Positions 2,471 through 35,391 of a stretch of 64,000 nucleotides of DNA are shown in pieces. The position numbers and the translations under genes were made by a program. The DNA is taken from sequence record OQ870555.1; one strand, given 5' to 3'. The DNA is from Escherichia phage PECP14. The first letter of the stretch is position 1. The number at the start of each line of letters is the position of its first letter. The notes under the pieces were generated by a model. The model was not told the origin of the DNA, did not search any database, and was given only the letters and a program-made list of their open reading frames with translations.

Positions 2471-3238
2471 TTATTCAGCAGCCGCAGCTTTTGCATCCAG
2501 TTTAGCACGCTTAGCGGCACCATCATAGTCCTTAGCAACCAGACCACGACGAGACAGCATAGATTTAACACCGCGCTCAGACTTACCAGTTTTCTCAGCG
2601 ATCTCAGCAACAGTCATGTTAGCCAGATCCAGACCTTCTAACAGATCTTCACGAGTTTTAGCACTTGAAGTTTCCTGTACCGGCATAGCAGCGATACGAC
2701 CTTCACGAAGCAGACTCAGAGCTTTACCACGGATCTGCTTAATATTGCGACCGAAGTGAGCAGCGATAGCTTCAATAGTAGCACCAGCAACAACCTGATT
2801 AACGAAATCAGTTTCTTCGTCAGGAGTGAAGGAACGAACAGCAGCAGCTTTTTCGGTTGGCTTAACAGAAGCAGTCATTTCCAGACTCAGGATCTTACCC
2901 TGTACCTGCTTAGCACCGAACTGACCACCAGCTACAGCAGCAGCGATTTCAGCGTAAGTATACTGACCAGCATGAGCGTTCAGGAAATCAACCAGTTCAG
3001 CTTCCTGCTCAGGAGTCCACGGGGATTTCTGTACTTCGTTTGCTTTCTGTACTTCGAAACCTTCTTTACGCAGCTTAGAGCCAACAGAGCGAGCGGTAAC
3101 GTCTTTGCCAGTCTCGGTAGCCAATTCAGCAGCGATAGCAGCTACTTGTTCTTGAGAGATTACAGCAACACCCAGAGCAGTGGCTTTTGCTTTCAGAGAC
3201 TCGGTTACACCTTCTACGTTCCAGTTCAGTTTAGACAT
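2471..3238 (-). CDS. hypothetical protein with three HTH-like repeats
   Basis: three repeated segments (YAEIAAAVAGG.., IEAIAAHFGRN.., VAEIAEKTGKS..); E. coli-optimal codon bias. Confidence 0.5.
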   Translation of the reverse strand: MSKLNWNVEGVTESLKAKATALGVAVISQEQVAAIAAELATETGKDVTARSVGSKLRKEGFEVQKANEVQKSPWTPEQEAELVDFLNAHAGQYTYAEIAAAVAGGQFGAKQVQGKILSLEMTASVKPTEKAAAVRSFTPDEETDFVNQVVAGATIEAIAAHFGRNIKQIRGKALSLLREGRIAAMPVQETSSAKTREDLLEGLDLANMTVAEIAEKTGKSERGVKSMLSRRGLVAKDYDGAAKRAKLDAKAAAAE

Positions 3239-4013
3239 TATTATTTTTCTCCAATAGTTCTTTAATCGACAGGATTTCTATCCCATTCGTTTCGGCTTTC
3301 TTATAAGATGAGGAAGAACGTTTTGATTCATCCTCACAGATTAGGTATTTGACGTCTTTGGTAACGGACTTCTTAACCGTATATCCTAGACTTTCTAAAT
3401 AGTTTGTTGCATCCGTTCGATTTGCAAAATCTTGCAAAGATCCGGTAATACAGACCGTGATTCCATTTGGCTGGGTAACTAAATCATCTGTAATGATGAT
3501 ATCCGCTTTAGCACCTCGAATACCTGTTGAGAATTTCCACGGTAATTCAATAACATCCTTGCCTTGTGGGGAATTTAGCCAGGTTTTGTAATTTTCTCCA
3601 GCCTTGCCGTCAGCCTTCACATCGTGGAAGCTAGTGCAATTTTGGGACAGTTTCTTTGCTGCAACCTCTCCAATAAGAGGAATTCCTAAAGAACCGAGAA
3701 CTGAACCAAAGTCAGTGTCTCCGCGAACCTTAGTATTTAACTCGCTAATCAATTTAGCGGCAACCTTGCTACCCACAGCTCCGACCAAATCTTCTTCGGT
3801 CAGGTAAAACAGTTCTGAGATCTTAGTCAGCTCCAGCTTCTCAATAGTTTTCGGGCCAAAGCCCTTTAACTTCATTTTTGTGCAGAAGTTCTCGATTAAC
3901 TTACTTGATTGCGCTGGACAGTTGGACTTATTCCTACAGAATAATTGCCCGTTGACAAGATCTAGCTTAGAACCACAAGAGGGACATTGTGTTGGAATTT
4001 CGATTTTCATCAA
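3231..4013 (-). CDS. NAD-dependent DNA ligase, C-terminal fragment (Zn-finger/HhH/BRCT)
   Basis: CPSCGSKL..C..C zinc finger, HhH-like GIPLIGEVAAKKL, BRCT-like tail. Confidence 0.7.
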   Translation of the reverse strand: MMKIEIPTQCPSCGSKLDLVNGQLFCRNKSNCPAQSSKLIENFCTKMKLKGFGPKTIEKLELTKISELFYLTEEDLVGAVGSKVAAKLISELNTKVRGDTDFGSVLGSLGIPLIGEVAAKKLSQNCTSFHDVKADGKAGENYKTWLNSPQGKDVIELPWKFSTGIRGAKADIIITDDLVTQPNGITVCITGSLQDFANRTDATNYLESLGYTVKKSVTKDVKYLICEDESKRSSSSYKKAETNGIEILSIKELLEKNNNV

Positions 4014-4212: not shown

Positions 4213-5184
4213 TTAGTCGTATACTCGCTCTACTATACAAGGGATTACACCACCAGCACGAATCACTCGAATCTGGCAACCGATCTCTAAATCGAGAGCG
4301 TTAATATAATCAACGTTATTAAGAGTTGCTTTAACGATTGTGGCATCATCAATAATCACCGGCTCGAAATAACCAACTGGAGTTACTTTACCAGAAGCCC
4401 CTACTTGCCATTCAACTTTAACAAGTGTGGTAATTTCGCCTTCTTCATCCTCTTTAATAGCAAATGCGCCACGAGGAAATTTATTAGTCCAACCTTCACG
4501 GAAGAATTTGTTGTTATCATTAATACGAACAACTTTACCATCTGTCGGAATCCATTTAAAGAAGGAACGAACATTAACAACTGTCAAGAAGTTCTCATTC
4601 TCTAGCCAAAGCATATCTTTTAAATAGGCTTCTGTAATACCGACTGTTTCCGCTGAACACTGGATACCATATGCAACGAAGATTAAACCACCTTCACCAA
4701 TACGTTGGATGAAATCATCGCTGTCTTTCAGGTTAATAGCACCTGAAGCGTAGTTACGTTTGTTCTCTACTTCTTTAGTAATGAGAACTTCACCAGTGAT
4801 TTGAGTTGGAACTTTTTGGGAAATAGTTTTAGGGATGTTCAGCATTTTAACATTATGCGTTACATCATTCCCTAGAATACCGTTACCACGAGTTAACGCT
4901 TGAACAAATTCACCATTAATATATAATAGAGAAATCGCACAACCATCTAACTTATCAGTTTCAACCTGACCTAATGGATTGAATGGAGCTTTATCACCGC
5001 GACCGTAATAGACTTTCTGCAAAGAATACATACGATACAAATGAGGAATATCACCTTTCGGTCCGATTTCTTCCTCCAGTGGGAATCTTTTAATCAGACG
5101 ATCATATTCTTCATCGGAAATAAGACTCATTCCCTGGTAGTACGCTTCTTGACAACGTTTGATAAAGTCTTTTACATTATTCAT
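4213..5184 (-). CDS. NAD-dependent DNA ligase, N-terminal adenylation fragment
   Basis: KLDGCAIS (KxDG adenylation motif), OB-fold region; separate ORF upstream of the C-terminal fragment. Confidence 0.7.
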   Translation of the reverse strand: MNNVKDFIKRCQEAYYQGMSLISDEEYDRLIKRFPLEEEIGPKGDIPHLYRMYSLQKVYYGRGDKAPFNPLGQVETDKLDGCAISLLYINGEFVQALTRGNGILGNDVTHNVKMLNIPKTISQKVPTQITGEVLITKEVENKRNYASGAINLKDSDDFIQRIGEGGLIFVAYGIQCSAETVGITEAYLKDMLWLENENFLTVVNVRSFFKWIPTDGKVVRINDNNKFFREGWTNKFPRGAFAIKEDEEGEITTLVKVEWQVGASGKVTPVGYFEPVIIDDATIVKATLNNVDYINALDLEIGCQIRVIRAGGVIPCIVERVYD

Positions 5185-11225: not shown

Positions 11226-11316
11226 GTAAAATTTTTCCGAAGGTGCTATCAGTGTCTTTGAGCACAGAGAAAACCGAGTCAAAACGACTCGGTAATCAGG
11301 ATTGAGCTAATGAAAA

Positions 11317-11712
11317 TCAATCATCATTTAGGCCTGGGACATAGATTCCAATGCGATTTAATCGACCTTTAGCTTCTTCGAGAATATCTTCGGTGTACTC
11401 CCAAATATCATCTTCTACTTGCAAAAGATAAGGGGATTCACCAGTTTCGGGGTCACGTGTAATGGCTAAACCACGTGGATGGAATATAGAGAAGTTGAGG
11501 GCAACAATCAAGCCCATGCTGGACAATTCATTCCAGTCAGCTTCCCAACCATCATCTTCATCTTCGTCCACAAAGACACCTACACTAGGGTCTGTTACAG
11601 AAGTAAACGGAAATGTTACACTAACCTTGTCAACCCCCAACCAACGTGCAAGGAGCCCCTCAGCACGCTCTACCAAACTAGGATCTATCTGACGCCAAAA
11701 TACTTGTTCCAT
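11317..11712 (-). CDS. hypothetical protein (paralog 1 of tandem pair)
   Basis: shares DW.EL..MGL..ALN...F.P and C-terminal G(I/Y)x(V/I)PGL with the adjacent ORF. Confidence 0.5.
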   Translation of the reverse strand: MEQVFWRQIDPSLVERAEGLLARWLGVDKVSVTFPFTSVTDPSVGVFVDEDEDDGWEADWNELSSMGLIVALNFSIFHPRGLAITRDPETGESPYLLQVEDDIWEYTEDILEEAKGRLNRIGIYVPGLNDD

Positions 11713-11721
11713 TCTGCCTCC

Positions 11722-12150
11722 TTAAGCAGTTAAACCTGGGATCATATACCCGAAACGACGAAGTTTCTGAATCCCCTCATTTACTTCTTCGGGCGAGTAT
11801 GACCAGCCCTCACGTTCATTTACCTGGAAAGCAGGAGCTTCACCAGTGCGATAATTTACAATAAGACGGTGATTTGCAGGCATAAACAGCTTATGGTTCA
11901 AGGCAAAAACCAGACCCATTTCATCAAGTTCTTTCCAGTCTACAATCTCTTCTACTCCCTCGCCTAAATCCACACTAACTCCAATACACGGAGCTTCCTC
12001 TAGCGGGCCTTTAAAGGATAAGAAGATATCGTTATTCTCACACCAAATCTTGAGCAGATTGATGGTTTCATTATACATACCATTAGGGAGAGAGCGCCAG
12101 AAGTTGAGAAGCATAGGATTTACCTCTTTCATGAAAATATTATTGAACAT
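11722..12150 (-). CDS. hypothetical protein (paralog 2 of tandem pair)
   Basis: paralogous to 11317-11712. Confidence 0.5.
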   Translation of the reverse strand: MFNNIFMKEVNPMLLNFWRSLPNGMYNETINLLKIWCENNDIFLSFKGPLEEAPCIGVSVDLGEGVEEIVDWKELDEMGLVFALNHKLFMPANHRLIVNYRTGEAPAFQVNEREGWSYSPEEVNEGIQKLRRFGYMIPGLTA

Positions 12151-12152
12151 GC

Positions 12153-12692
12153 TTATACCTTAAGTTTCTGAAGAGCCTTACACATTTCAAGATCTGGACT
12201 AAATTCCAGCATATAGCTGATAGCATTTAAATCTTGAAGGTTTATTCCAGTCCTGCCATTTACAATAACAGTAGGAAATTGGTACATCATAGCACCAGCA
12301 TCATCTAGGACGCACCAATGCTTGAGCTTATGTTTTTCTACGAAACGTAAGACAGAATTACCCCGAGATAAACCACCTCCAGTAAAATCTGTTGTACCAA
12401 GAAAACGATCGATCAAACCGAGTCCGGTCATAATCTGAACGTTCTCCATTTCATTTCGTACAGAAAACCATGAAGATACCCCAACAATCATTATTGGGGA
12501 TGGCTTAAGAAAGTTCTGAAAAGCCTGGAGTAATGGCTTGTAAACCCAATCACCACCAAAGAATAGCTTCTCACTATCTGGAGCATGATGGTGAGAGATG
12601 CTCGAATTGAGCACCCCATCAATATCCAGGAAAATCACAGGAGTATTACTTATTTCCACCAGTAGCATCCCACGTCCAGACTTTAACTTCAT
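12153..12692 (-). CDS. HAD-superfamily hydrolase/phosphatase-like
   Basis: motif I VIFLDIDGVLN near N-terminus. Confidence 0.45.
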   Translation of the reverse strand: MKLKSGRGMLLVEISNTPVIFLDIDGVLNSSISHHHAPDSEKLFFGGDWVYKPLLQAFQNFLKPSPIMIVGVSSWFSVRNEMENVQIMTGLGLIDRFLGTTDFTGGGLSRGNSVLRFVEKHKLKHWCVLDDAGAMMYQFPTVIVNGRTGINLQDLNAISYMLEFSPDLEMCKALQKLKV

Positions 12693-12831
12693 CAGTAAAA
12701 GGAACTGGAACCTTCAATTCACCTTTACCCCACATAACAGATAGGAACAGAGAATAAATGGTAATCATACCGATTAGGTTGACAAACCATACTAGACCTT
12801 TCCAGATACCCTTAAAAATCTTCTTCACCAT
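12646..12831 (-). CDS. small membrane protein
   Basis: start reassigned to the Met preceded by AAGGAGGG; hydrophobic segment LVWFVNLIGMITIYSLFL. Confidence 0.4.
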   Translation of the reverse strand: MVKKIFKGIWKGLVWFVNLIGMITIYSLFLSVMWGKGELKVPVPFTDEVKVWTWDATGGNK

Positions 12832-12994
12832 ATTCTCCCTCCTTAATAAGGAACTCTTTCCATTCTGCTGTATCCTCATAGATAACGCAGAAATCATCAC
12901 TCTTCCATGAGAAGTCATCAGTAGCAAATTCGAAACGGTAGCACCAACTACCGTCTGGCCATACTAAAAGATCACACATGCTTTTCTGGGACAT
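12812..12994 (-). CDS. hypothetical small protein
   Basis: internal Met start with GGAGGG SD; acidic C-terminus. Confidence 0.35.
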   Translation of the reverse strand: MSQKSMCDLLVWPDGSWCYRFEFATDDFSWKSDDFCVIYEDTAEWKEFLIKEGEYGEEDF

Positions 12995-13823
12995 AAATAT
13001 TTCCCTCCATAAAAGCTTCAACTTGATCAATAAAGTGTTTATTACCAAAAACTTCGGCAGCTCCAGCACGCCATACAGTAACACCACGTTTCTCATACTC
13101 AAGCTGTTCGTCATAACGAACTTGTGGGTTAACAACCATCATCTTAGTTCCACGACATACAGCAGGAAATAGCTCCCAGTTGAAGTCGATTACTTGGTTG
13201 CTACAACCTACTACAATAACCATATCATTGCTAGTAAGTGTATCAAACAGGTTAATCTGACCCATATACCACGGAGCCGTCTCACCAAAGAATGTTACGT
13301 TTGGTTTTACCCATTCGTAATCCTCAGGGGCAATCGCAGTATACCCAACATCTTCGATGATTTGGTTGCGACCCTGACGATAGATCACCTCTTTCAAGTA
13401 CCCGTGAGCGTGAATGATTTCATCACGAGGGATACCAGCACGTTCCAGAAGGTCATCAACGTTAGTAGTGAAGTTCTTCACGCTATCCTCACCATAACGC
13501 TGGAACCATTCTGCAATTCGCAGATGGGCAATGTTAGGCTCAACAGTCTGTAATTCCTGACGACGCATGTTGTAGAACTCATGAGTCTTGAGATACAGAT
13601 CGTTACCATCTTTATCAATGCCAGGGAAACGAGCACTGAAGTAGTTAGGATCATCTTCACCACAGAAGCGACGGAAGCCAGCTTCAAAGTTAGGCAAGCT
13701 ACATACTTCCTCTAGATCGTACTCATCCCACAAGGATTTCCCACTAGCAGTATCAGTACGGAAAGCACGAACACCACTATCTACACTCAAACCTGCACCA
13801 CTAACAACGATTAGTCTACGCAT
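12972..13823 (-). CDS. Sir2-like NAD-dependent deacylase/ADP-ribosyltransferase
   Basis: GAGLSVDSGVRAFR (Rossmann NAD motif), TTNVDDL (TQNID-like), catalytic HG. Confidence 0.65.
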   Translation of the reverse strand: MRRLIVVSGAGLSVDSGVRAFRTDTASGKSLWDEYDLEEVCSLPNFEAGFRRFCGEDDPNYFSARFPGIDKDGNDLYLKTHEFYNMRRQELQTVEPNIAHLRIAEWFQRYGEDSVKNFTTNVDDLLERAGIPRDEIIHAHGYLKEVIYRQGRNQIIEDVGYTAIAPEDYEWVKPNVTFFGETAPWYMGQINLFDTLTSNDMVIVVGCSNQVIDFNWELFPAVCRGTKMMVVNPQVRYDEQLEYEKRGVTVWRAGAAEVFGNKHFIDQVEAFMEGNIYVPEKHV

Positions 13824-14017
13824 TATACGATTCCTTGCTTGAATCCTTCGATGATATTTTGGAGCAGAATTGCTTCTTCTGGGCGAACCTTCTCTTGCTT
13901 AATAAGCATATCCAAACCAGCAATACAGGTAGCTACTCCAGCATTATACCCAGCATTCCACTGCTCCATGAGCATATTTTCTAAATTACTTTTTAGATTC
14001 TGATTCAAGAAGTCCAT
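13823..14017 (-). CDS. hypothetical protein
   Basis: start set at the internal Met with GGAGG SD (ORF extends to 14101). Confidence 0.35.
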   Translation of the reverse strand: MDFLNQNLKSNLENMLMEQWNAGYNAGVATCIAGLDMLIKQEKVRPEEAILLQNIIEGFKQGIV

Positions 14018-14189
14018 AAAGTTTTTCCTCCAATTCCATAATACGATTTTCGTAAGAAGCACGCAGCTTCTCGATGGACAAAGCACGAACTGTAACTTCA
14101 TCTGAATTGATCGCTAGCTGAGCTAGATCTTCTGTTTCCATACGTCCGTTGTAAATTAAGCGATATTTAAGATGTTTTACGTTTTTCAT
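13986..14189 (-). CDS. hypothetical protein (coiled-coil)
   Basis: ORF with AAGGA SD. Confidence 0.4.
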   Translation of the reverse strand: MKNVKHLKYRLIYNGRMETEDLAQLAINSDEVTVRALSIEKLRASYENRIMELEEKLYGLLESESKK

Positions 14190-14198
14190 TCTTGTTCC

Positions 14199-14480
14199 TT
14201 AGTTCTGTACTGTAAATTCATTCTTATCACAGTGAGCATAATAATACCCATACATACGATAAATTTTCACAGCCTTAGTAGACCCCTTCGATTCTTCATA
14301 ATCAATCCAGAGCCACTTGTCTTTACCTACATAATGTACCCGAAACTTCTTAACTTTCTTATCATTCCATGTTGCAACAACACGACGATAATCAAATCCG
14401 CCCAACCAATCTAGAGCCTTACGTTCTTCACTAGGCTCTCCAAGATGGGAAACATCTACTTTTGGAAGCAATTCGCTCAT
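14199..14480 (-). CDS. hypothetical protein
   Basis: ORF with early-type promoter upstream (14509-14537). Confidence 0.5.
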   Translation of the reverse strand: MSELLPKVDVSHLGEPSEERKALDWLGGFDYRRVVATWNDKKVKKFRVHYVGKDKWLWIDYEESKGSTKAVKIYRMYGYYYAHCDKNEFTVQN

Positions 14481-14537: not shown

Positions 14538-14573
14538 ATAAAATAAAAGCCAGGTCGACTAGCAACCTGGCTG
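14535..14573 (-). terminator. intrinsic terminator after nrdD
   Basis: minus strand AGCCAGGT...ACCTGGCT + TTTTATTTTATTT. Confidence 0.55.
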
Positions 14574-14578
14574 ATTCA

Positions 14579-16453
14579 TTATTTAGCGCGAATGTCTTGA
14601 TGTTTCACTCGACCCATAACCTCATGTTGTTTACCTGGGTTAAACGGACGAGCACCTGGATTTCCAAGATATCCACAAACTCGACGAGTTACCTCAAGAG
14701 TCTCAGGATCATGATTGCCACAAATTGGGCATTTGAAACCATCCTCAGAAGCTATAGTTTCACCCAAGAACCCACATTCCCCACAAGAGTCTACTGGAGT
14801 ATTAATACCGAAGTAATGAACTTTACTTGCAGCATAGTTAATAACCCATTCCAGTGCATCAGGGAATCGTTTCATATCCGGTAATTCCACATAGGAAATG
14901 CACCCACCAGAAGCAATAGGAGTAAAGTTAGACTCATAATCAAACTTCACATTTGGAGCAACCTTACGTTCTACATCAAGGTGATGGGAATTAGTGTAAT
15001 ATCCTTTAGCCAGAATATCTTCATGCTCTGGGAAATACTCACGGTCTAGGCGACAGAAGCGATCACATAGAGATTCAGATGGTGTAGCATACAGACTATA
15101 CCCTAATTGAGTCTCTTCCTTCTTCTGATCAGCACGATCACGCATGTATTGTAGCACACGTTGAACGAACTTGATACAAGACTCAGACATTGTATCTACA
15201 TCTTTACCAAACATGAGCTGCAACATTTCGTGGCAACCAATATATCCTAGAGATACAGAAGCACGCTTGTAGAAATGATCAAATACATATTCATCTGGCC
15301 CCAGACGTAATCCAAAGGCTCCTGACATATAGAGGATGGGCGCAGCTTTAGCTTGAATGTATTTTAAGCGATCAACCCTCCACTCCAATGCTTTTAACGC
15401 GGTATCCACACGCAGCTCAAGCAGATCGAAGAATAGATCAATATTTCCTTCCGCTTCGATAGCGATTCGAGGAAGGTTTACGGAAACAACGCCTAAGTTG
15501 TTACGACCAGAAGTTTCACCATCTTCCGCAGCAGCCAGGAACGAACGACAGCCCATAGAGACTTTGTAGTCCCCCGTAACTTCTACAACCTTATCATAAC
15601 TGATGTAGTCAGGATACATACGTTCAGCAGTACATTTCATAGCTAACTTCTTGATATCATAGTTAACATCACCAGGTTTCATGTTTACGCCCTCACGCAA
15701 AACAAATACCAGTTTAGGGAAGATAGCTGTACGTTTATTGATACCCAAACCATCCATACGTACTTCTAGTATTGCTTTCTGTACAAGACGTGCTTCCCAA
15801 GAAGTTCCTAGACCAAAACCAAAGGTAATAAACGGACTTTGACCATTAGAGTTGAACATCGTATTGATTTCATACTCCAGGCCCTGACAGGCATCGTAAA
15901 CTTCTTTCTCAGTCATTTCCGTAGCCATTACAGATGCTTTGGCTTCATCCTTAGTCCAACGCTTTGCAAACGCATGATTCTTATCATAAGACTTACGAAC
16001 ATAAGGAGCCAATACTTCATCTAATCGGTCTACAGAAGTACCCCCATATTGATGTGAACTAACCTGAGTGATAATCTGAGCTGTGATAGCAGCCGCAGTA
16101 GTAATAGAGTTTGGTGTACTGATTTCAGCATTACCAACCTTCATACCATTCTTCAACATATCTTCCAAAGCAACCAGGCAACAGTTAGTCATACCTAATG
16201 CAGCGTAATCAGCATCATGGAAGTGAATATCACCAATCATGTGAGCATTTCGAATCTGGATTGGCATTTCTTCCAGAATCAGATATTTACTCAATTCCCC
16301 TGCAAGCATATCCCTTTGTGTAGGGAAACGTTCTGAGGGCTTATTGGCATTATTAAACAGCAGCTCTTCATCTGCTGAACCTTCGATAATTTCTTTGCAG
16401 TTTCGAATCAAGGACTGCATTCCTTTATACTTTAGTTCTTCATTGCGATTCAT
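14579..16453 (-). CDS. nrdD: anaerobic ribonucleoside-triphosphate reductase (class III)
   Basis: C-terminal Cys cluster (CGECG...CPICG) and glycyl-radical motif RVCGYLG. Confidence 0.85.
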   Translation of the reverse strand: MNRNEELKYKGMQSLIRNCKEIIEGSADEELLFNNANKPSERFPTQRDMLAGELSKYLILEEMPIQIRNAHMIGDIHFHDADYAALGMTNCCLVALEDMLKNGMKVGNAEISTPNSITTAAAITAQIITQVSSHQYGGTSVDRLDEVLAPYVRKSYDKNHAFAKRWTKDEAKASVMATEMTEKEVYDACQGLEYEINTMFNSNGQSPFITFGFGLGTSWEARLVQKAILEVRMDGLGINKRTAIFPKLVFVLREGVNMKPGDVNYDIKKLAMKCTAERMYPDYISYDKVVEVTGDYKVSMGCRSFLAAAEDGETSGRNNLGVVSVNLPRIAIEAEGNIDLFFDLLELRVDTALKALEWRVDRLKYIQAKAAPILYMSGAFGLRLGPDEYVFDHFYKRASVSLGYIGCHEMLQLMFGKDVDTMSESCIKFVQRVLQYMRDRADQKKEETQLGYSLYATPSESLCDRFCRLDREYFPEHEDILAKGYYTNSHHLDVERKVAPNVKFDYESNFTPIASGGCISYVELPDMKRFPDALEWVINYAASKVHYFGINTPVDSCGECGFLGETIASEDGFKCPICGNHDPETLEVTRRVCGYLGNPGARPFNPGKQHEVMGRVKHQDIRAK

Positions 16454-16483
16454 TATACCCTCCTTCTCTAACTAAGACTACTA

Positions 16484-16512
16484 TTATAACTCATTCGAAG
16501 GCGGATGTCAAC
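16484..16512 (-). promoter_or_regulatory. leftward consensus promoter for nrdD
   Basis: minus strand reads TTGACA-17-TATAAT, then GAAGGAGGG SD and nrdD ATG. Confidence 0.55.
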
Positions 16513-16562
16513 AATATTTTACTATAAAGTTCTGTAACATGATCTGAGTCAAAAAATTTTAT

Positions 16563-16591
16563 TTGCCAACCTCTACTAAAAATAGTATAAT
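16563..16591 (+). promoter_or_regulatory. rightward promoter in divergent control region
   Basis: TTGCCA-17-TATAAT on plus strand upstream of phoH. Confidence 0.45.
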
Positions 16592-16703
16592 CACGCACCC
16601 GTGTACGCGATATAAAATGATTATCTAGTACCATACATCTCCCAGTAAAAGCAAGTAAATTTTTTATTTAAATGCAATATCATAGGCTTATTTAAAATTG
16701 TAG

Positions 16704-16738
16704 TTGCCTTTTACTGTATATAATGGTATAATATATTT
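16704..16738 (+). promoter_or_regulatory. rightward promoter(s) upstream of phoH
   Basis: TTGCCT followed by two overlapping TATAAT hexamers. Confidence 0.45.
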
Positions 16739-20335: not shown

Positions 20336-20833
20336 ATGAAATTAACACAGAGTAGATTAAAAGAGCTAATCTCCTATGACCCTGAAACTGGCGAATTTAC
20401 CTGGCTCCCAAGAAAAACTTTAGCAAAGCATTTATGGAACGCTAAAGCAGGAACCTATGATAAATTAGGGTATCTTCGTATAAAAGTTGAAGGAGTTCAA
20501 TATTTAGCTCATCGCCTAGCCTTCTTGTATATGACTGGAGAAATACCAGAAGGAAAAATTGACCATAAAGATACTAATCCGTCTAATTGCGCCTGGGATA
20601 ATCTCCGTGAAGCCACGAGTTCTCAAAATTCTATGAACTCGTGTGCAAGATCGGATAACCAGCTTGGAATGAAAAATATTCGTGTAAAAGGCACTTCATT
20701 TCAGGTTAGGATAGGCAAAGACGGCAAATCTTATACAAAAACTTTTAAAACCCTAGAAGAAGCTATAGAATGGAGAGACACCAAACTACTAGAACTTCAT
20801 GGGGACTTTGCAAACAACGGAGAAGCTAAATGA
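20336..20833 (+). CDS. HNH homing endonuclease with AP2-like DNA-binding domain
   Basis: IDHKDTNPSNCAWDNLREATSSQN (HNH), NIRVKGTSFQVRIGKDGK (AP2-like); sits between nrdA and nrdB. Confidence 0.7.
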   Translation: MKLTQSRLKELISYDPETGEFTWLPRKTLAKHLWNAKAGTYDKLGYLRIKVEGVQYLAHRLAFLYMTGEIPEGKIDHKDTNPSNCAWDNLREATSSQNSMNSCARSDNQLGMKNIRVKGTSFQVRIGKDGKSYTKTFKTLEEAIEWRDTKLLELHGDFANNGEAK

Positions 20834-33597: not shown

Positions 33598-33626
33598 TTG
33601 CTTGAATGCTAAATTCTCTGTATAAT
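33598..33626 (+). promoter_or_regulatory. early promoter cassette
   Basis: TTGCTT-17-TATAAT + TTATAAATTTGAGAGAGGAA. Confidence 0.55.
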
Positions 33627-33656
33627 ATATTTATAAATTTGAGAGAGGAATCAAAT

Positions 33657-34712
33657 ATGATTAAGACTGGTCTAGTAATTGGTAAGTTCGCACCATTAAC
33701 GCGTGGTCATATTAACCTAATAAACACAGCAGCAACTATGTGTGAACGAGTTATTGTTGTAGTTAGTCATGATAATCGTTGGCTGGATAAGCAGAACACA
33801 CGTGATCAGGAAGTATTACAGTTAAAGAATCGACTTCGTTGGTTAGAACAAACTTACGCGGATATTGAGCACGTTTCGGTAGAGTACATTATTGAAGATG
33901 ATATTCCTGAATATCCGAATGGTTGGCCGGAATATGCTAGAATCCTTAATGAAAATTATGGACATTTGCCTGAGATCACCATTTTCTCTAGCGAACTAGA
34001 CTATGATGCAGAATATAAGAAATATCTGCCGAAGTTTGGTCATTATATTGTAGATTCTGATCGGACTCGTGTTCCAATCTCAGCTACAATGATTCGTAAT
34101 GATCTTATGAAGTATTGGGAGTTTCTTCCTAGCGTAGTTCGTAAAGATTACGTGCGTAAGGTTGTAATCATTGGGACTGAAAGCTCAGGCAAAACAACTT
34201 TAACAAAGTACCTTGCGAAATTATATAATACTTCGTGGGTAGAAGAATATGGTCGTACTTACTGCGAAGTTGATCTAGTTGGTAATGAAGAACTCCTGAC
34301 TAGCGAGGACTATAATAAAATTGCATTCAGGCACAAAGAGCTAGAGTTTGAGGCAGAACGTACTGCAAATAAGATCATGTTTGTAGACACAAATGCTTTC
34401 ATTACAGAGTTTTATCACAGACTTTACGAGCATCGTAAAAATCCGGTTGTAACAGCTATTGCTAAAGAAGAGCATTATGATTTAGTTATAGTTTTAGCAC
34501 CTACTGTTAAGTGGGTAGATGATGGTTTACGTATTAACTCCGATCGTTCAATTACTTCTGAACTGTTCGAGCAGATGAAGAAAGAATTTCCTAATCAGTT
34601 TCCAGAAGGGCGTACTGTATATATTGACTCCCCGGACTATAAGGTTCGTATGGACGAAGCAGTAAACGCAGTAGACTGGCTGATTCATCACTTTAACGTT
34701 GGAGAGTTTTAA
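33657..34712 (+). CDS. NadR-like NMN adenylyltransferase / ribosylnicotinamide kinase
   Basis: GKFAPLTRGH (HxGH nucleotidyltransferase) and GTESSGKTTL (Walker A kinase). Confidence 0.65.
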   Translation: MIKTGLVIGKFAPLTRGHINLINTAATMCERVIVVVSHDNRWLDKQNTRDQEVLQLKNRLRWLEQTYADIEHVSVEYIIEDDIPEYPNGWPEYARILNENYGHLPEITIFSSELDYDAEYKKYLPKFGHYIVDSDRTRVPISATMIRNDLMKYWEFLPSVVRKDYVRKVVIIGTESSGKTTLTKYLAKLYNTSWVEEYGRTYCEVDLVGNEELLTSEDYNKIAFRHKELEFEAERTANKIMFVDTNAFITEFYHRLYEHRKNPVVTAIAKEEHYDLVIVLAPTVKWVDDGLRINSDRSITSELFEQMKKEFPNQFPEGRTVYIDSPDYKVRMDEAVNAVDWLIHHFNVGEF

Positions 34713-34713
34713 T

Positions 34714-35391
34714 ATGACTAACTATCTTGTAAATGACTTTAAAAACTGGAAACCTTTGGAATATCTGTGGCTGTTTATAGCAGTCGCCTTTATTAGTTTA
34801 GCTAACTATAATGGTACAGCTCTAGATTGGGCTACTGCAATAACCAACGTGGTTTGTGTTATTCTGGTTGCAAAAGGACGTGTTTCCAACTATATTTGGG
34901 GCTTAGTTGGTGTTCTTACCTATGGTATTACAGCTTTAAACGCAGATCTTTATGGTAACGCTGCACTAAACCTGCTATACTACGTTCCTATGCAGTTTTA
35001 TGGAATGTACTTATGGCATAAAAATAAGCCAAGTAATCTGCCAGATGTTCCAACTAAGGTTCTGACTAAAGCCCAAGCTCTGCTGACTCTAGGGATTCTA
35101 GCAGTAGCCACGTTAGGGTATGGTAGTTTCTTAGCTACTACGGCTGATCCATTCCCAATGTTGGATGCATTTACTGCGGTAGGTAGTGTGATCGCTATGT
35201 GGCTTATGGTTAAGCAGTATGCCGAGCAGTGGCTGATCTGGATTGCTATTAACATTGGTACTGTATATATTTGGCTTGTAACTGCCCAGTCTACGGGTGC
35301 TTCTTATGCAATCCTAGCAATGTGGCTGGTGTTCTTAGGTAACTCTATTATGGGAGCCTATAAAGGCTACTTTGTAAGAGTTAACAAATAA
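34714..35391 (+). CDS. pnuC: PnuC-like nicotinamide riboside transporter
   Basis: polytopic membrane protein with PnuC-like W/Y-rich helices; directly follows NadR-like gene. Confidence 0.6.
   Translation: MTNYLVNDFKNWKPLEYLWLFIAVAFISLANYNGTALDWATAITNVVCVILVAKGRVSNYIWGLVGVLTYGITALNADLYGNAALNLLYYVPMQFYGMYLWHKNKPSNLPDVPTKVLTKAQALLTLGILAVATLGYGSFLATTADPFPMLDAFTAVGSVIAMWLMVKQYAEQWLIWIAINIGTVYIWLVTAQSTGASYAILAMWLVFLGNSIMGAYKGYFVRVNK

Follow-up and report, generated by a model that had tools for sequence, protein, structure and literature searches.

The 64,000-nucleotide stretch of Escherichia phage PECP14 analysed here (sequence record OQ870555.1; hereafter the window) carries, on its minus strand, a Sir2-like gene followed by a gene for a HAD-like hydrolase. 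Both belong to a tightly packed run of nine genes whose start and stop codons overlap or abut, and which lies between two terminator-like hairpins: three small open reading frames (ORFs), Sir2, an ORF of 60 residues (orf60), a 61-residue transmembrane (TM) ORF, the HAD gene and two DUF7415 paralogues (Table 1). Relatives of the window are Demerecviridae, that is, T5-like phages, and the block sits between nrdD and the primase gene, as it does in T5. This synteny backs the early-region placement proposed in a first-pass annotation of the sequence, and the Sir2 gene is predicted to share its expression with the early genes for replication and nucleotide metabolism. A 3.2-kb query at the locus matched Salmonella phage 3-29, Escherichia phage DaisyDussoix (Bas31), Stitch and many more over its full length at 99.3% identity. 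In total, 465 phage records match this query, the majority labelling the gene "Sir2-like protein" or "NAD-dependent deacetylase". With the gene annotated in hundreds of GenBank records, and with its zinc loss and its HAD neighbour in print, the locus is therefore already known as annotation and hypothesis. It is real, with every element where the first-pass annotation had placed it, and, as a sequence observation, ordinary: a long-annotated gene of the T5 family. The first-pass annotation makes no mention of this record of the gene, of the zinc loss or of the RNA-repair type of the HAD.

The protein is recognised by Pfam SIR2 (PF02146; E = 1.2e-21, 77.9 bits against a cutoff of 24) and by PHROG 2162 (E = 1.4e-107). 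The signatures from which the first-pass annotation had recognised a Sir2 homolog are all in place, as GAGLS (residues 9–13), TTNVDD (119–124) and HG (140–141), followed by FGE (179–181). The residues for binding nicotinamide adenine dinucleotide (NAD+) and for catalysis are retained on alignment (G9, A10, G11, S13, F21, R22, N121, D123, H140, G141, F179, G180 and E181), and, with the exception of G180, each is listed as invariant in the 58 clade members compared, homologues 56–86% identical to the window protein. From this intact active site we predict a catalytically competent NAD+-dependent sirtuin.

Among solved proteins, phmmer placed E. coli CobB nearest (1s5p, E = 1.3e-16), then Archaeoglobus Sir2Af1/Af2, SIRT5, Thermotoga Sir2, SIRT2 and SIRT3. 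An AlphaFold (AF2) model was built from the 58 homologues, with a pLDDT of 89.1 and a pTM of 0.87. Searched with Foldseek against the PDB, it best matched CobB (27% identity; template-modelling score 0.82–0.84, normalised to CobB), Sir2Af1 and SIRT5. All 50 listed matches were canonical sirtuin deacylases (CobB, Sir2Af1, SIRT5, SIRT2, Hst2), with no defence-type Sir2 among them. In the comparison with defence-type Sir2 that the first-pass annotation had proposed, the model thus sides with the canonical deacylases. Neither Sir2 nor HAD nor the small ORFs matched a PADLOC defence model at E ≤ 0.1, and no linked sensor or partner gene (SLOG, HerA, pAgo, TPR) was found among the neighbours, which are nrdD, small ORFs, HAD, the DUF7415 genes and primase. 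We reject a defence-type Sir2 identity, given zero PADLOC matches at that threshold and 50 listed fold matches that are all canonical deacylases.

Residues were mapped onto CobB numbering through the phmmer alignment, and the numbering was verified by the mutants named in PDB titles (A76, Y92, I131, V187). H140 is the catalytic histidine, CobB H147, and N121 and D123 are the Asn and Asp that contact the NAD ribose. The acyl-pocket residues V122, V176 and F179 correspond to CobB I131, V187 and F190. Y84 and R87 correspond to Y92 and R95, the class-III pair for acidic acyl groups, and lie in the stretch F83-Y84-N-M-R87-R88. All mapped active-site residues are invariant in the 58 members, as is R88. 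CobB Ala76, also an acyl-pocket residue, is Gly in engineered CobB variants with PDB structures.

The Cys4 zinc module that canonical sirtuins (classes I–IV and U) have between HG and FGE is not present. No Cys occurs between residues 141 and 179; CobB C155 aligns to Tyr and the CobB CHCC stretch (C174/C176/C177) to a gap, and the AF2 model has a β-hairpin in place of the module. Across 121 clade members, no Cys-rich column was found in this region. Among 1.84 billion cluster representatives, the zinc-less form with TTNVDD reaches many sequences at 40–50% identity, and CxxC...CxxC returns only in remoter TQNxDD relatives. A 20–30-residue insertion, at residues 54–75 here, is specific to the T5-like subgroup. 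The clade is acidic throughout (median isoelectric point (pI) 4.95, net charge −6 to −20, 120 members). In 185,579 species genomes its signature motifs turned up in just 2 contigs, from metagenome-assembled genomes, so that the clade is in essence phage-restricted. Judged by sequence, we assign the window protein to this phage-restricted sirtuin clade as a zinc-less, class-III-like member on the CobB/SIRT5 branch.

Such proteins have been described before. Skliros et al. 2016 (PMC5107563) reported a zinc-less Sir2/CobB of KVP40-like Vibrio phages, noted the T5 homologue and suggested that host enzymes are deacetylated. Viral sirtuins forming a "distinct clade" were defined by Iyer, Burroughs, Anantharaman and Aravind 2022 (PMC9503650, section 3.7.3), who predicted for them a KptA-like removal of RNA 2′-phosphates and described three neighbourhood types, one of them with a SAK-type HAD in the T5-like phage SP15. 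The window shows the same gene family and neighbourhood, with no essential difference from SP15, the published type example: a phage-clade sirtuin adjoins a HAD_SAK phosphatase in a T5-like phage, here with two small ORFs inserted between them.

The HAD-like neighbour, which the first-pass annotation had identified by its DIDG motif, matches Pfam HAD_SAK_2 (PF18143; E = 4.4e-19, 69.7 bits, cutoff 27.5), described in Pfam as "HAD domain in Swiss Army Knife RNA repair proteins". Its start is ambiguous between ATG 12692, ATG 12668 and GTG 12659, the last being the start used in GenBank relatives (168 residues); the DIDG motif occupies residues 23–26 of the long form. All four HAD motifs are kept (D12/D14, S62/S63, R99 and D119/D120) and are invariant in 14 homologues with identity down to 38%. 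With these motifs, a Rossmannoid fold and the profile match, the protein qualifies as a HAD-superfamily phosphatase, and we predict that it is active and Mg-dependent. PHROG 18062, labelled 'Sir2 (NAD-dependent deacetylase)', matches HAD residues 88–179 (12153–12430) and not the sirtuin; because of this mislabel, many RefSeq and GenBank phage records show two 'Sir2' genes or call the HAD Sir2.

To describe the association between the two genes, we scanned 61 loci, comprising 57 viral-contig Sir2 loci and four others. HAD lies no more than about 0.4 kb from Sir2 in 33 of them, all in genomes of 104–123 kb (T5-like) except L004, a 71-kb contig. Two gene orders occur. The window and T5 have Sir2 ahead of HAD; Erwinia phage KEY and two metagenomic relatives, L004 and L064, have the order HAD, small ORF, Sir2; Sir2–HAD proximity has thus outlasted rearrangement. 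Three T5-like loci (L009, L010, L018) keep Sir2 but lack HAD, and no HAD was found within 6 kb of Sir2 in the scanned loci from genomes of about 146–153 kb (Vequintavirinae-size). The function of Sir2 is therefore independent of HAD, which is a frequent but dispensable companion.

The pair of small overlapping ORFs noted in the first-pass annotation, one of them membrane-anchored, are orf60 and the 61-residue ORF. The latter reaches 1.93 in a 19-residue Kyte-Doolittle window (VWFVNLIGMITIYSLFLSV), on which we predict one TM helix. Depending on the locus, zero to two small ORFs separate Sir2 and HAD. An orf60 homologue stands directly downstream of Sir2 in 28/62 loci, HAD-less loci included, and is missing where HAD abuts Sir2; the TM ORF, present at 7/62 Sir2 loci, is a sporadic accessory. 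These counts rule out the small ORFs as obligatory partners of the Sir2–HAD pair.

Table 1. Positions of the genes and signals discussed (in the window unless a contig is named)
Feature	Position	Strand	Remarks
Sigma-70 promoter	16511–16483	−	Perfect 12/12 consensus; precedes nrdD
nrdD	14579–16453	−	Upstream of the run
Terminator-like hairpin	14548–14572	−	After nrdD, upstream edge of the run; 10-bp stem, 6 GC pairs, T tract
Small ORF	14199–14480	−	Head of the run; with the next ORF matches PHROGs 5236 and 7953
Small ORF	13986–14189	−	Head of the run; see previous row
orf64	13823–14017	−	64 residues; PHROG 5827; stop codon overlaps the Sir2 start codon (ATAATG)
Sir2-like protein	12972–13823	−	283 residues; Pfam SIR2, PHROG 2162
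orf60	12812–12994	−	60 residues, acidic (pI 4.05); PHROG 5116; 23-nt overlap with the Sir2 3′ end
TM ORF	12646–12831	−	61 residues; one predicted TM helix; PHROG 11166; overlaps its neighbours
HAD_SAK_2 phosphatase (predicted)	12153–12692 (longest ORF); 12153–12659 (from GTG)	−	Pfam HAD_SAK_2
DUF7415 paralogue	11722–12150	−	The pair matches Pfam PF24187 at 9e-37 and 3.2e-28
DUF7415 paralogue	11317–11712	−	See previous row
Terminator-like hairpin	11273–11293	−	Downstream edge of the run, ahead of the primase gene; 9-bp stem, then TTTCTCTGTG
Split NAD-dependent DNA ligase, adenylation and OB domains	4213–5184	−	
Split NAD-dependent DNA ligase, BRCT domain	3231–4013	−	
NadR-like enzyme (NARP3)	33606–34712	+	CTP_transf_like and AAA_28
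PnuC-like transporter (NARP3)	34699–35391	+	NMN_transporter, 3.1e-43; overlaps the NadR-like gene
HAD-Prs-NAPRTase locus, L062	7001–10217		Serratia phage ChuuTotoro
HAD-Prs-NAPRTase locus, L063	7001–10569		Metagenomic contig
HAD-Prs-NAPRTase locus, L139	5001–8519		Metagenomic contig

NAD+ figures elsewhere in the gene content of the phage. The window carries adjacent NadR-like and PnuC-like genes inside the tRNA region, the combination described as NARP3 (PMC13464706). In 3-29 this pair is labelled as a nicotinamide mononucleotide (NMN) transporter and a ribosylnicotinamide kinase; in the stretch looked at in Bas31, which is 99% similar, no such pair is annotated. The phage also encodes a split NAD-dependent DNA ligase, so its own replication consumes NAD+. 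A distant relative of the sirtuin (36% identity) occurs in L144 (2664–9669), a phage-like contig in a Bacilli metagenome-assembled genome, in the order NADAR, an unknown gene, NAMPT, Sir2, endonuclease VII, NrdD and NrdG. There Sir2 again adjoins nrdD, together with genes for NAD salvage and ADP-ribose processing.

Outside the T5-like phages, the closest HAD homologues (38–42% identity) lie in Vequintavirinae-type genomes, directly upstream of Prs-like and NAPRTase-family genes. In ChuuTotoro the HAD and Prs-like genes overlap; in each of the two metagenomic contigs a single short ORF separates them. The same Prs-like and NAPRTase Pfam pair is the annotation of NARP1 (Adps and Namat) in the Vequintavirinae phage Bas63. 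NARP1 operons can recruit a phosphatase for ADP-ribose (ADPR)-1″-phosphate against RES-type defence, giving NARP1-AP (Adps-Adpp-Namat; Osterman et al. 2026, preprint, doi 10.64898/2026.01.28.702374); the phosphatase of that system, Adpp, has a Macro domain (Poa1p-like), and HAD is unmentioned there. The adjacency suggests that the HAD may be an alternative NARP1-associated phosphatase. It is a new lead, absent from the literature searched, including the NARP papers. The group at least 80% identical to the ChuuTotoro HAD makes up 3 of the 440 phage records with this HAD, NARP1-like neighbours having been checked in ChuuTotoro only. Remoter HAD_SAK-like genes in viral contigs stand mostly away from Sir2, Prs, NAMPT or other NAD genes, so that information comes from the close HAD orthogroup alone. 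In one of the three contigs with HAD next to NARP1-like genes, genes for a T4-type RNA ligase and a Metallophos protein lie some 5 kb away on the opposite strand, and the context therefore does not cleanly part RNA repair from ADP-ribose metabolism.

The first-pass annotation had offered two functions for the Sir2 homolog, a deacylase acting on host proteins and a defence-type NAD-consuming effector. Homology to CobB, Sir2Af1 and SIRT5 and the invariant Y-x-x-R pair speak for the former, whereas the PADLOC result, the fold and the dependence of the phage on NAD+ speak against the latter. We tentatively favour an NAD+-dependent protein deacylase, at a probability of roughly 40%. In such an enzyme NAD+ would be bound in the Rossmann cleft (GAGxS, FR, TTNVDD, VNP), nicotinamide would be expelled and an anionic oxygen nucleophile would attack ribose C1′, with His140 driving the second step via the ribose 2′-OH. 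For the substrate and the biological role, we infer that the likeliest acceptor would be an acyl-lysine on host or phage proteins, probably with an acidic acyl group (succinyl, malonyl), and that the enzyme would reset acylated proteins during infection, yielding nicotinamide and O-acyl-ADP-ribose.

Several observations argue for a deacylase. Its nearest characterised relatives, in sequence and in fold, are all deacylases; the Y-x-x-R pair is kept; and Sir2 occurs without HAD. The acidity of the clade suits basic protein substrates better than RNA. The company of NAD salvage genes, with NAMPT next to the distant relative in L144 and NARP3 in the window, is as expected of a true NAD+ consumer. 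With CobB and SIRT5 the window protein shares the Rossmann fold, GAGxS, FR, (T)xN(V/I)D, HG, FGE, the catalytic His and the Tyr-x-x-Arg pair, at about 27% identity. It differs from them in reading TTNVDD for TQNID, in the insertion at residues 54–75 and in its restriction to phages.

Other features count against a deacylase. The protein lacks the zinc module by which the peptide cleft is shaped, and has the β-hairpin in place of its cysteines. The peptide-binding V-Y-P segment reads V-I-D, with CobB Y220/P221 becoming I212/D213, and an invariant Cys41 (codon at about 13701–13703) stands at the pocket position of CobB Ala76. NCBIfam deacylase models are matched far under their cutoffs (at best 87.8 bits against 243, for NF001753; 70.5 against 320 for prot_deacyl_CobB), so that the window protein is related but not orthologous to CobB. 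A deacylase role leaves the linkage to HAD in both gene orders within T5-like phages unexplained, and in the literature searched neither biochemical nor genetic work was found on a T5-type phage sirtuin or on any clade member. Finally, the catalytic residues would serve acyl-lysine and an RNA 2′-phosphate (as in Tpt1) equally well. Since the conserved chemistry fits both acceptors, the active-site residues cannot choose between them.

Removal of RNA 2′-phosphates, as put forward by Iyer et al. 2022, is the main rival, a possible function that we consider doubtful. The sirtuin would act like KptA/Tpt1: the RNA 2′-phosphate would attack NAD+, and the ribose 2″-OH would then free RNA with a 2′-OH and release ADP-ribose 1″,2″-cyclic phosphate. 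The HAD would clean RNA 2′/3′-phosphate ends or dephosphorylate the ADPR-phosphate by-product, and the phage tRNAs would be guarded from host anticodon nucleases. KptA/Tpt1, the proposed functional analogue, likewise uses NAD+ as ADP-ribose donor to an anionic oxygen in two steps via the ribose 2″-OH. It differs in fold, belonging to the ADP-ribosyltransferase superfamily and not to the Rossmann sirtuins.

The case for RNA repair draws on the multi-context argument of PMC9503650, with its SAK-type HAD in SP15, on the assignment of the window HAD to the same HAD_SAK_2 family, on a Sir2–HAD linkage that survives inversion of the gene order and on the large tRNA array of the phage. The two-step sirtuin chemistry and the invariant Tyr, Arg and Arg would suit a phosphate acceptor. 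Set against this, the annotations of Bas31 and 3-29, covering about 46 kb on each side (the early and tRNA half), contain no Macro gene and none for enzymes that would make or seal 2′-phosphate junctions (RNA ligase, polynucleotide kinase, 2H cyclic phosphodiesterase), and an RNA-repair pathway would probably draw on host enzymes. A clade as strongly acidic as this one would be unusual for an RNA-binding enzyme, and the HAD is missing from some Sir2-bearing T5-like phages and unlinked in Vequintavirinae-size loci. Nor were the published RNA-repair neighbours of Sir2 reproduced with Pfam and PHROG in the V5-like phage ECO340P2 (L002), where the neighbours were an Acb2/Tad1-hairpin gene, a DprA-like gene, a methyltransferase-like gene, unknowns and a distant Metallophos gene; PMC9503650 used more sensitive methods, and the ECO340P2 result neither confirms nor refutes its neighbourhoods. 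The Acb2/Tad1-hairpin gene of ECO340P2 (L002 1940–2215), of a family of anti-CBASS/anti-Thoeris sponges, shares the strand of Sir2 and lies some 4 kb upstream of it.

It is unlikely, in our estimate, that the Sir2–HAD pair serves neither protein deacylation nor classical RNA repair but an NAD+/ADP-ribose toolkit for counter-defence. The HAD would then be a phosphatase for ADPR-1″-phosphate, 2′-phospho-ADPR or NADP+, a non-homologous substitute for the Adpp Macro protein of NARP1-AP. NARP1 would be fed by it in some Vequintavirinae, for instance to deal with products of NADP+ cleavage or of RES-type NAD+ phosphorolysis; its partner in T5-like phages would be a zinc-less sirtuin acting on or supplying a small-molecule ADPR or NAD derivative, possibly phosphorylated, within the NAD+ counter-defence economy of the phage. 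This idea gains from the three independent Vequintavirinae-type contigs with HAD upstream of Prs-like and NAPRTase genes, from the NARP1 annotation of that gene pair in Bas63, from the NARP3 genes and NAD-dependent ligase of the window and from the NADAR and NAMPT genes beside the distant Sir2 relative. The likeness to NARP1-AP (doi 10.64898/2026.01.28.702374) is that of a phosphatase gene embedded with NAD-reconstitution genes, a place held by homologues of the window HAD in some Vequintavirinae, and NARP1 operons do recruit an ADPR-1″-phosphate phosphatase against RES-type defence, though the characterised one is a Macro protein. The window differs in carrying NARP3, not NARP1, and in having its HAD next to Sir2. 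The adjacency is also rare, most remoter phage HAD_SAK-like genes stand away from NAD genes, and T5-like phages are without Adps or Namat to use ADPR. We know of no small-molecule acceptor for class-III sirtuins.

The last alternative concerns an NAD-consuming effector or a protein ADP-ribosyltransferase, by which host NAD+ would be drained or host proteins ADP-ribosylated for host shut-off or competitor exclusion. Sir2 domains without zinc are a typical feature of NADase effectors, and the window protein shares the Sir2 superfamily and the absence of a zinc module with ThsA, DSR1/2, SIR2-HerA and the pAgo-associated Sir2; it differs from them in having no PADLOC match and no sensor or partner domain, and in belonging to a virulent phage with the means to rebuild NAD+. 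Although sirtuin chemistry permits hydrolysis or ADP-ribosyl transfer, and the divergence of Sir2 between the window and T5 (below) is of a pattern often seen in conflict genes, we consider an effector improbable: sequence and fold are nearest to true deacylases, the deacylase-specific His and Y-x-x-R pair are invariant, no sensor, Macro or antitoxin partner gene was found nearby, and constitutive destruction of NAD+ would harm the phage itself, whose NAD+-needing ligase and NARP3 rebuilding make an unregulated NADase unlikely.

Between the window and T5 (L035), the segment 12812–14017 is diverged, with 52% identity for Sir2, 34% for orf64 and 53% for orf60, as against 89–94% for the flanking nrdD, HAD and primase. 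In a rough neighbour-joining tree the Sir2 genes of T5-like and of ~150-kb phages are interleaved, which suggests allele exchange. The window allele is of the Epseptimavirus/Stitch type.

The clade is found in several large groups of virulent phages of enterobacteria and Vibrio, among them T5-like and rV5-like therapeutic phages. Phages with this sirtuin also carry pathways that rebuild NAD+, and its role, be it a reset of host protein acylation, tRNA repair or the processing of ADP-ribose derivatives, would fill a gap in the NAD+-centred conflict between phage and host. The remaining interest of the locus lies in the biochemistry of the sirtuin and in the HAD–NARP1 adjacency.

Around the two genes, the tandem DUF7415 paralogues (11317–12150, minus strand) are acidic, adjoin HAD downstream and are kept in T5-like phages, including those without HAD. 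The tail TTTCTCTGTG of the hairpin that follows them is T-rich by the criterion of the scan (at least 5 T in 8 bases). Plus-strand ORFs within the region are short and antisense to conserved genes. Between nrdD and phoH, positions 16483–16737 form a divergent promoter region, which on the plus strand contains sites matching 11/12 and 10/12 consensus positions, the latter with an extended −10 TG. Further along, a free-standing HNH_3 homing-endonuclease ORF (20336–20833, plus strand) lies between nrdA and nrdB; it is not at this position in Bas31, in which nrdB starts at 20361.

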